Below, piece by piece: positions 52,470 to 52,784 of a stretch of DNA of 64,000 nt (position 1 is its first letter; each line of letters opens with the position of its first letter). The position numbers were made by a program, and so were the translations under genes. The notes under the pieces were generated by a model that was not told the origin of the DNA, did not search any database, and worked only from the letters and a program-made list of their open reading frames with translations. This DNA comes from an uncultured Collinsella sp. (GTDB taxonomy: Bacteria; Actinomycetota; Coriobacteriia; Coriobacteriales; Coriobacteriaceae). Where the stretch lies: positions 77,495-141,494 of the forward strand of contig CALIOA010000068.1 of the NCBI GenBank assembly GCA_938045065.1, written 5' to 3'.

Positions 52470-52523
52470 CAGAGCCCTCGATAAAAGAAAAGGACCCCTT
52501 TGCAGAGGTCCTAGTCAATTCAA

Positions 52524-52668
52524 GGTGGCGGGGAAGGAAATCGCGCCCGCGCTCCGCGCGTGCGGACCGCTGCGGCGCTTGCGCGCCTTGCGAGCTCCGC
52601 TGGCAAACGCTCACGCGTTTACTCAGCTCCGCGCCCTCACGGGGTTCGATTCCATGTGGGGGCTGCAT
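52524..52668 (-). repeat. tRNA-associated structured repeat element (Phe-locus copy; more diverged core)
   Basis: Begins with GGTGGCGGGGAAGG, a duplicate of the tRNA-Phe 3' end. The core keeps hairpin AAACGCTCACGCGTTT, and the end carries GGGGTTCGATTCC, matching the tRNA-Phe T-loop. Bounded by identical terminators at 52483-52511 and 52669-52697. Confidence 0.65.
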
Positions 52669-52697
52669 AAAAGAAAAGGACCCCTTTGCAGAGGTCC
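52669..52697 (-). terminator. intrinsic terminator after tRNA-Phe (repeated after the element)
   Basis: GGACCTCTGCAAAGGGGTCC hairpin followed by TTTTCTTTT on the minus strand. Confidence 0.6.
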
Positions 52698-52709
52698 TAA
52701 ACAATTCAA

Positions 52710-52784
52710 GGTGGCGGGGAAGGGAATCGAACCCCTGACACGAGGATTTTCAGTCCTCTGCTCTACCAACTGAGCTACCCAGCC
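52710..52784 (-). tRNA. tRNA-Phe (anticodon GAA)
   Basis: GGCTGGG acceptor (one U4-C69 mismatch), D-arm GCTCAGTTGGTAGAGC, anticodon loop CTGAAAA and T-arm AGGGGTTCGATTCCCTT; only CC of the CCA is encoded. Confidence 0.8.

Follow-up and report, generated by a model that had tools for sequence, protein, structure and literature searches.

A family of small tRNA-gene-associated elements in Collinsella with tRNA-derived arms and a predicted hairpin core

Results and Discussion

The window, by which we mean the whole 64-kb stretch of Collinsella DNA that was analysed, contains a tRNA-Phe(GAA) gene at positions 52710–52784 on the minus strand, and the features of this locus described below lie on the same strand unless stated otherwise. 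The gene had been called in the original prediction from the letters of the sequence, and both ARAGORN and Rfam (tRNA family RF00005, 67.2 bits vs. a gathering score of 29) confirm the call. Upstream of it lies a putative sigma-70-like promoter of the form TTGACC-16-TATACT (52817–52844), recognised by consensus match only. Two peculiarities of the gene that had been pointed out before, a U4–C69 mismatch and an encoded end that reads CC and not CCA, can both be read in the sequence; because the tRNA-Phe sequence is invariant across eight Collinsella species, we regard them as the normal state of this gene.

On the tRNA strand the gene is followed by a trailer with a terminator, a 13-nt spacer, an arm antisense to the T-arm (anti-T), a GC-rich core of ~105 nt and a second copy of the region in which the gene ends. 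Both copies together form a direct repeat of 63 nt (52729–52667 vs. 52543–52481, 60/63 identical) and, counted from copy 1 to copy 2, the unit has a length of 186 bp. Copy 1 (52667–52729) comprises tRNA positions 56–75, the trailer and terminator 1, and copy 2 (52481–52543) a displaced tRNA 3′ end (52524–52543), the trailer and terminator 2. The same terminator had been noted on both sides of the element, and identical hairpins are indeed present at 52698–52677 and 52512–52491, both reading AGGACCTCTGCAAAGGGGTCCT followed by a run of T. A 14-nt duplicate of the tRNA-Phe 3′ end had been described as well, and GGTGGCGGGGAAGG occurs twice at the locus (52524–52537 and 52710–52723), but it is only a part of the direct repeat: the duplicate spans from within the T-loop through the terminator and is 63 nt rather than 14 nt long.

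Between the repeat copies the spacer x (ATGCAGCCCCCAC, 13 nt, 52656–52668), which is hypervariable between species, is followed by the anti-T arm (52641–52655). This arm includes GGAATCGAACCCC (52653–52641), the exact reverse complement of tRNA-Phe positions 50–62 over 13 nt. Read on the plus strand, positions 52641–52653 give GGGGTTCGATTCC, in which a Phe-type T-loop at the end of the element had been seen. The sequence is there, but its reading on the tRNA strand is the reverse complement of the tRNA-Phe T-arm, and it therefore represents an antisense arm and not a tRNA-like 3′ half. Similarly, the sequences taken for the start and the end of the element exist, but as the locus is on the minus strand the supposed start is the 3′ end and the supposed end is the 5′ arm. 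The core begins with hairpin P1′ (CCCC-GTGA-GGG with a GNRA loop, 52634–52644), which is predicted by the fold, by RNAalifold and in the model alignment. Then come the P2 helix (52594–52632) enclosing hairpin P3 (AAACGC-GTGA-GCGTTT, 52604–52621, recognised in sequence and fold), hairpin P4 (GGCGC-GCAA-GCGCC, 52574–52587) and hairpin P5 with the core CGCGC-GGA-GCGCG (52542–52566), which adjoins the repeat junction; P2, P4 and P5 are predicted by the fold and the model alignment. The hairpin AAACGC-TCAC-GCGTTT, said to be kept in the Phe copy, is found there as AAACGCTCACGCGTTT at 52605–52620.

The element is not a tRNA, as neither ARAGORN nor Rfam gives a tRNA match in 52481–52709 on either strand, even at E ≤ 10. 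No family of Rfam 15 reaches its gathering score on the element, and at E ≤ 10 only noise of up to 25 bits is obtained, which includes the models for YrlA and permuted tmRNA with 12–14 bits. Between the Phe unit and a GH5-like gene, at 52230–52480 of the window, we observed four REP-like palindromes of ~48 nt in tandem with the consensus CGGAAAnnGCGTCCC ... GGGAYGCnnTTTCCG; six half-sites of this type are located here vs. three weak ones in the remaining window. An aspS RNA motif (RF02930, 76 bits) is located at 4386–4469 on the minus strand.

ARAGORN places the six tRNA genes of the window on the minus strand without exception, and each of them has an element behind it. Covariance model R1, whose seed includes the Phe copy, yields seven matches in the 64 kb, all directly behind these six tRNAs. 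They comprise, all on the minus strand, sister elements behind tRNA-Ser(gct) (37319–37458, 138 bits), the third tRNA-Arg(acg) gene (40321–40465, also delimited by the filled/empty comparison below), the second tRNA-Arg(acg) gene (40746–40890) and tRNA-Leu(cag) (46254–46396). Behind the first tRNA-Arg(acg) gene one full and one 3′-truncated element (41084–41399) are found, and a perfect 190-bp tandem duplication with 1.9 copies covers 41100–41462 of the window. The distal copy behind this gene ends inside P5, and it does so likewise in other species (L047).

The Phe copy shares 60–66% identity with the five other window copies (Ser, three Arg and Leu) and is thus diverged, but its similarity to them is significant. 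An nhmmer profile built from Arg-, Leu- and Ser-type copies only matches 52534–52657 with E = 4.8e-8, and a profile of all types minus Phe matches the Phe copy with E = 1.5e-21. The alignment to the other loci that the original prediction had proposed as a check therefore supports its view of Phe as a fourth tRNA identity with a matching element, next to Ser, Arg and Leu. As the T-arm is a near-palindrome, short inverted matches arise easily, and one could think of a chance similarity or a decayed tRNA pseudogene. The E-values of both Phe-free profiles, the element pattern (five found in the window vs. 0.00 expected in its shuffles) and the covariation described below speak against this explanation, to which we assign hardly any probability; judged by these sequence comparisons, a chance origin of the Phe copy is excluded.

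Using a pattern derived from the element itself we fetched at least 120 loci from species-representative genomes and 119 further loci from metagenomes, mostly of the human gut, giving a family set of about 250 loci. Among the matches listed, the named genome loci belong nearly all to Collinsella/Coriobacteriaceae, and one belongs to Mobiluncus curtisii; the window itself is 95–96% identical to Collinsella loci over 5 kb. In all of the about 250 loci the element follows a tRNA and shares its strand. It is carried by at least 16 tRNA types: Val-tac, Gly-ccc, Gly-gcc, Leu-cag, Leu-taa, Arg-acg, Lys-ttt, Gln-ttg, Glu-ttc, Phe-gaa, Ser-gct and Ser-cga were found in a first set of 12, with Ala-tgc, Arg-ccg, Ser-tga and Lys-ctt in addition. 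Genes for tRNA-Cys, Leu-gag, Val-gac, Met and Ser-gga in the same loci are free of the element. Full-text searches of the literature gave no description of it, and as far as these searches reach the family is apparently undescribed; it might still be among the candidates listed without a name in a large catalogue of RNAs from the human microbiome.

Three environmental contigs show a multi-hairpin sequence (L185 3330–3440, L174 860–1005 and L166 3800–3920) with TCGAACC...AAAACGCG-loop-CGTTTT in common, which in L185 is located upstream of a 622-aa ORF. We treated these contigs as unrelated to the family, since they share a P3-like hairpin with weak scores: model R1 gives 27–28 bits for L166 and L174, neither of which has an Rfam match, and L185 stays below the report threshold. 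No tRNA adjoins the sequences in L166 or L174, the two that were checked.

The match between element and tRNA that the original prediction had suggested is general. In 120 of 124 loci, representing six different loop sequences, the inverted 7-nt T-loop equals the T-loop of the neighbouring tRNA, and if each tRNA type is counted once, 10 of 12 T-loops match where 3.2 are expected (permutation, P = 2.5e-5). The in-register complementarity of the left arm is ~1.0 to tRNA positions 54–62, about 0.5–0.7 at most of positions 63–68 (controls 0.24–0.62) and at background level beyond position 68. On the other side the core ends with ...GCGGAC and the tRNA copy starts at ~position 59, from where 18 nt remain to the CCA; the repeat consists of only these 18 nt in some loci (Gly-ccc, Lys) and extends through trailer and terminator in the Phe, Arg, Leu and Ser loci. 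Comparing Leu with Gly(gcc), the cores differ by ~5% and the anti-T arms at 4 of 13 positions, all of them towards the new tRNA. Both arms are cognate-specific for the neighbouring tRNA.

Other readings of the left arm were tried and rejected. The arm is no direct copy of T-stem 5′ half plus loop, as only the inverted reading is exact for Phe and Leu, and a mimic of the acceptor–T minihelix is not formed, as the complementarity ends at ~position 68 and the acceptor end stays unpaired. An origin similar to retroviral primer-binding sites was also dismissed, since the 3′-terminal bases lack complementarity to the left arm and the ORFs of the window that were scanned near the tRNA loci include no reverse transcriptase gene. 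The likeness to such primer-binding sites is that the 18-nt copy of the element likewise begins after position 58.

Single-sequence folds of many copies agree in a five-way junction with the four branches P1′, P2/P3, P4 and P5, and RNAalifold recovers P1′ (in its general form CCC-GNNA-GGG), P3 and P5 from a plain MAFFT alignment. Helix P0, formed between the anti-T arm (5′ half) and the initial 7–10 nt of the downstream tRNA copy, closes the junction; it has only 5–10 bp and is 73% paired. In A2, a set of 128 related copies fitted to the structure, 81% of the cells are paired (68% in column shuffles and 33–49% with slid partners), changes on both sides are present in 38 of the 46 pairs and the covariation score is 0.30 (0.04–0.08 for slid partners). 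Compensatory changes between orthologues or paralogues were found for P4 in two Gly-ccc copies and for P5 between Gly-ccc and Leu, and in the Mobiluncus copy the stems P2, P4 and P5 differ entirely in sequence, with unchanged architecture and genomic context. The z-score of the Phe copy fold is −3.4. Hence the element shows what is generally expected of a structured non-coding RNA, a conserved secondary structure with compensatory changes, with the caveat that A2 was fitted to the model.

Nearly all hairpin loops are of the type G..A on the tRNA strand only, being GNRA tetraloops or C-GNA-G triloops, and G-U pairs on this strand (326) exceed A-C pairs (192); therefore the folded strand is the tRNA-sense strand. 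Within this model the tRNA-sense strand is shown to adopt a five-way junction that covariation supports and that the anti-T arm closes by pairing with the displaced 3′ copy. A tRNA-like gene on the plus strand, either as a 3′ half, permuted or tmRNA-like, was rejected, as it has no ARAGORN or Rfam match and both the loop type G..A and the G-U pairs indicate the minus strand. For the whole tRNA-Phe read-through RNA (52481–52784, minus strand) the minimum free energy fold pairs the T-arm with the inverted arm over 13 bp and the 5′ acceptor strand of the tRNA with the distal 3′ copy. In this predicted fold the molecule looks like a cloverleaf whose T-loop holds a giant insertion.

A strand-specific signal and hairpins adjoining both junctions would also be compatible with single-stranded DNA as the folded molecule. 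In DNA, too, C-GNA-G triloops such as GCGAAGC have an exceptional stability. The element could then be a non-autonomous relative of IS200/IS605 (PATE-like) or a site similar to attC of integrons, moved as folded single-stranded DNA by a hairpin-recognising HUH or tyrosine enzyme that cuts in the T-loop. However, insertion of IS200/IS605 gives no target duplication and would split the tRNA, while a long duplication is present here, and neither a tnpA nor a tnpB ORF is located nearby. The many GNRA tetraloops and tandem G.A pairs are also better suited to RNA, and we consider this origin quite improbable. Parsing the junctions as an IS91-type GTTC target or as an IS200/605 insertion was inconsistent in both cases.

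Between species the orthologous copies of the core are conserved about as well as the tRNA, and spacer, trailer loops and flanking DNA are variable, which, as far as can be judged from sequence comparison, shows that the core is under purifying selection. Intact copies occur once per tRNA gene and extra copies decay. The neighbours in the window are housekeeping genes (MetRS, SerRS, KsgA, TatD, RlmH and ProC). These observations favour a host non-coding RNA acting on tRNA biology, that is a vertically inherited structured-RNA gene whose product would be made by terminator read-through, and so do the compensatory changes between orthologues and the predicted pairings in the read-through fold. 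In read-through transcripts its anti-T arm might capture the upstream tRNA at the T-arm or, alternatively, the RNA might act as a mimic or decoy of the tRNA 3′ end in quality control, processing or regulation, and copies would have spread only via ordinary duplication and gene conversion. Left unexplained in this case are the exact boundaries of the unit, which are set by a repeat that starts in the T-loop and brings its own trailer and terminator, and the origin of at least 16 identity-specific versions; that some tRNA genes have no element also does not fit well. We regard a host RNA as a real, though tentative, possibility.

The third Arg gene allows a comparison of a filled with an empty site. 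In L005 and L032 this gene is directly followed by the trailer TTTGAGATTAAAGCTCCC, and in the window the TTTGAGATTAAAGCTCCC trailer sits after a 190-bp insertion, which contains an Arg1-like trailer, a terminator, spacer, anti-T arm, core and the 18-nt repeat. Therefore the inserted unit brings its own tRNA 3′ end and terminator and displaces the old ones downstream, as is usual for integrative elements, and on the basis of these sequences the third Arg gene is shown to have gained one entire unit with the 18-nt repeat as its boundary. This sole filled/empty case concerns paralogous Arg genes 0.5 kb apart, however, for which plain gene conversion is possible. Several arrays terminate in a partial next unit. 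At Gly(ccc) a full element is followed by one to three short units of 131 nt (L018 1500–1630, L046 2270–2400, L027 7480–7800), consisting of an unrelated stretch of ~75 nt, the P5 hairpin and a copy of tRNA positions 59–76. At the metagenomic locus L157 (406–672) the element lies behind tRNA-Arg(ccg) and has a downstream copy that corresponds to the 3′ end of tRNA-Glu, a mismatch that probably arose when elements from different loci recombined.

The unit is arranged like an integrative element that sits at 58/59 in the T-loop and restores the gene it targets: an intact tRNA is followed by a displaced 3′ fragment, and the direct repeat bounds the insert. Integrative elements that target tRNA genes via tyrosine integrases comprise prophages, islands, ICEs and CIMEs and include T-loop integrators, for example mycobacteriophage Ms6 (PMC1762012; Islander, PMC4383910). 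The likeness lies in the insert supplying a new 3′ end so that the tRNA gene stays intact, in the displaced 3′ fragment forming a direct repeat from the T-loop and in the tandem accretion at one site. In contrast, the Collinsella unit is non-coding and with ~190 bp very small, having neither an integrase nor another gene, its hairpin core is strand-specific and covaries, the T-arm occurs once more as an inverted copy, and the core is nearly the same behind many tRNA types.

No integrase, transposase, recombinase or reverse transcriptase was found near any copy examined, and a search for distant displaced 3′ ends did not reveal a larger autonomous parent element. It yielded only an unrelated island of ~5.2 kb in the anticodon loop of tRNA-Gly(ccc) (L043 ~1000–6600), where the displaced fragment is followed by the element. 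A phage-borne attP was considered and rejected: the one viral-contig match read in detail, L126, is the chromosomal flank of a prophage with the element outside of it, as in L126 1–600 the prophage end (with a LysM-type lysis gene) adjoins chromosomal DNA at attR, the last 8 nt of tRNA-Glu. The other viral matches are located near the ends of their contigs, and no viral contig contains the P5 pattern.

With regard to these systems the units could be inert accretion scars, namely miniature integrase-less (CIME-like) derivatives in which the conserved core is not RNA but the DNA of an attP arm, bound by integrase and accessory proteins. The intact tRNA followed by a displaced 3′ fragment in a direct repeat and the tandem arrays would fit, as would the recurrence of the repeat-adjoining module P5 with different internal sequence in the Gly(ccc) arrays and the use of the same tRNA genes by ordinary islands and prophages. 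On the other hand, the stems covary while sequences change completely, as in Mobiluncus, and strand-specific G..A loops and G-U pairs are unexpected for double-stranded protein-binding sites. There is also no nearby integrase, and no element was found inside a phage genome among the viral contigs, the match read in detail being the prophage flank mentioned above. We therefore consider inert scars unlikely, and these as well as transposition of single-stranded DNA hairpins fit worse than the two leading readings, the host RNA described above and the resident element described below.

Miniature inverted-repeat elements (MITEs) and REP/BIME repeats are also short, non-coding, hairpin-rich and present in many copies. 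The Collinsella element differs from them in being strictly tied to tRNA 3′ ends in one orientation, in having tRNA-derived "terminal repeats" that change with the target and in a core that appears to be under purifying selection. The inverted arms are derived from tRNA and the repeat is 18–63 nt long, with no short target-site duplication as in MITEs. The omega/reRNA of TnpB (IS200/IS605) and the bridge RNA of IS110 consist of a structured scaffold at the element end followed by flank-derived sequence. Here the scaffold is similarly followed by tRNA positions 59–76, and a segment antisense to the target is present in addition; differences are that there is no adjacent TnpB or IS110 recombinase gene, no match to the Rfam families IS605-orfB or HEARO, and that the sense and antisense arms overlap (positions 59–68) and do not flank the core. 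The 3′ETS-leuZ sponge, YrlA and tmRNA are made from or next to tRNA transcripts and contain tRNA-derived sequence. From these the Collinsella element differs as it has no tRNA-like fold and its T-arm is antisense.

With about even confidence we favour a family of small elements resident in tRNA genes of Collinsella, with at least one copy in Mobiluncus, whose read-through RNA would make use of the tRNA-derived arms. On the tRNA strand such a unit consists of tRNA positions ~59–76 with trailer and intrinsic terminator, by which the tRNA gene is now completed, then the variable spacer, an antisense arm of ~15 nt for the T-loop and T-stem of the cognate tRNA (54–68) and the ~105-nt core with four hairpin branches, after which comes the displaced original tRNA 3′ end. 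The core would be made as RNA by read-through of terminator 1. Units might be gained and lost by recombination inside the 59–76 repeat, which could be either site-specific, with the enzyme encoded at another place, or driven by homology between copies of a tRNA gene. The RNA arms (antisense 54–68 and sense 59–76) would tie each lineage to its own tRNA gene and may have a guide-like role in homing or maintenance.

The integrative geometry, the distribution of one copy per gene, the tandem arrays and the respecified arm upon a change of tRNA, as seen between Leu and Gly(gcc), argue for such a resident element. Against it speak the lack of an integrase, transposase or reverse transcriptase near the copies examined and of a larger parent. 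The strong conservation at orthologous loci would be no less expected of a host function than of a selfish one, the element has a strong terminator in front of it and no promoter of its own was found, and the pairing to T-loop positions 54–58 draws its support from one informative lineage, Leu. The resident, possibly guide-bearing element and the host RNA acting on tRNA read-through transcripts thus remain close to each other as explanations, and any function we assign to the element is our best guess.

A more speculative proposal, which we think rather doubtful, is that the elements are retargetable RNA-guided residents of tRNA genes or, alternatively, isoacceptor-specific regulatory RNAs with one per gene. 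In the RNA-guided case the 15-nt anti-T arm and the 18-nt sense arm would recognise both strands of the tRNA gene at 58/59 and direct copying or recombination of the unit into unoccupied tRNA gene copies, and a few base changes in the arms would be sufficient to move a lineage to a new tRNA type.

Conclusion

In a common genus of the human gut, Collinsella, a large share of the tRNA genes carries a conserved folded module of ~150 nt. The tRNA-fragment repeats of the units can confuse genomic-island finders and break metagenome assemblies, and the units offer sites for rearrangement. If the module acts as an RNA, it would represent a new family of tRNA-coupled RNAs with the specificity for each tRNA built in, and if it is mobile, it would be the smallest known kind of element that integrates into a tRNA gene and repairs it, possibly based on a guide.
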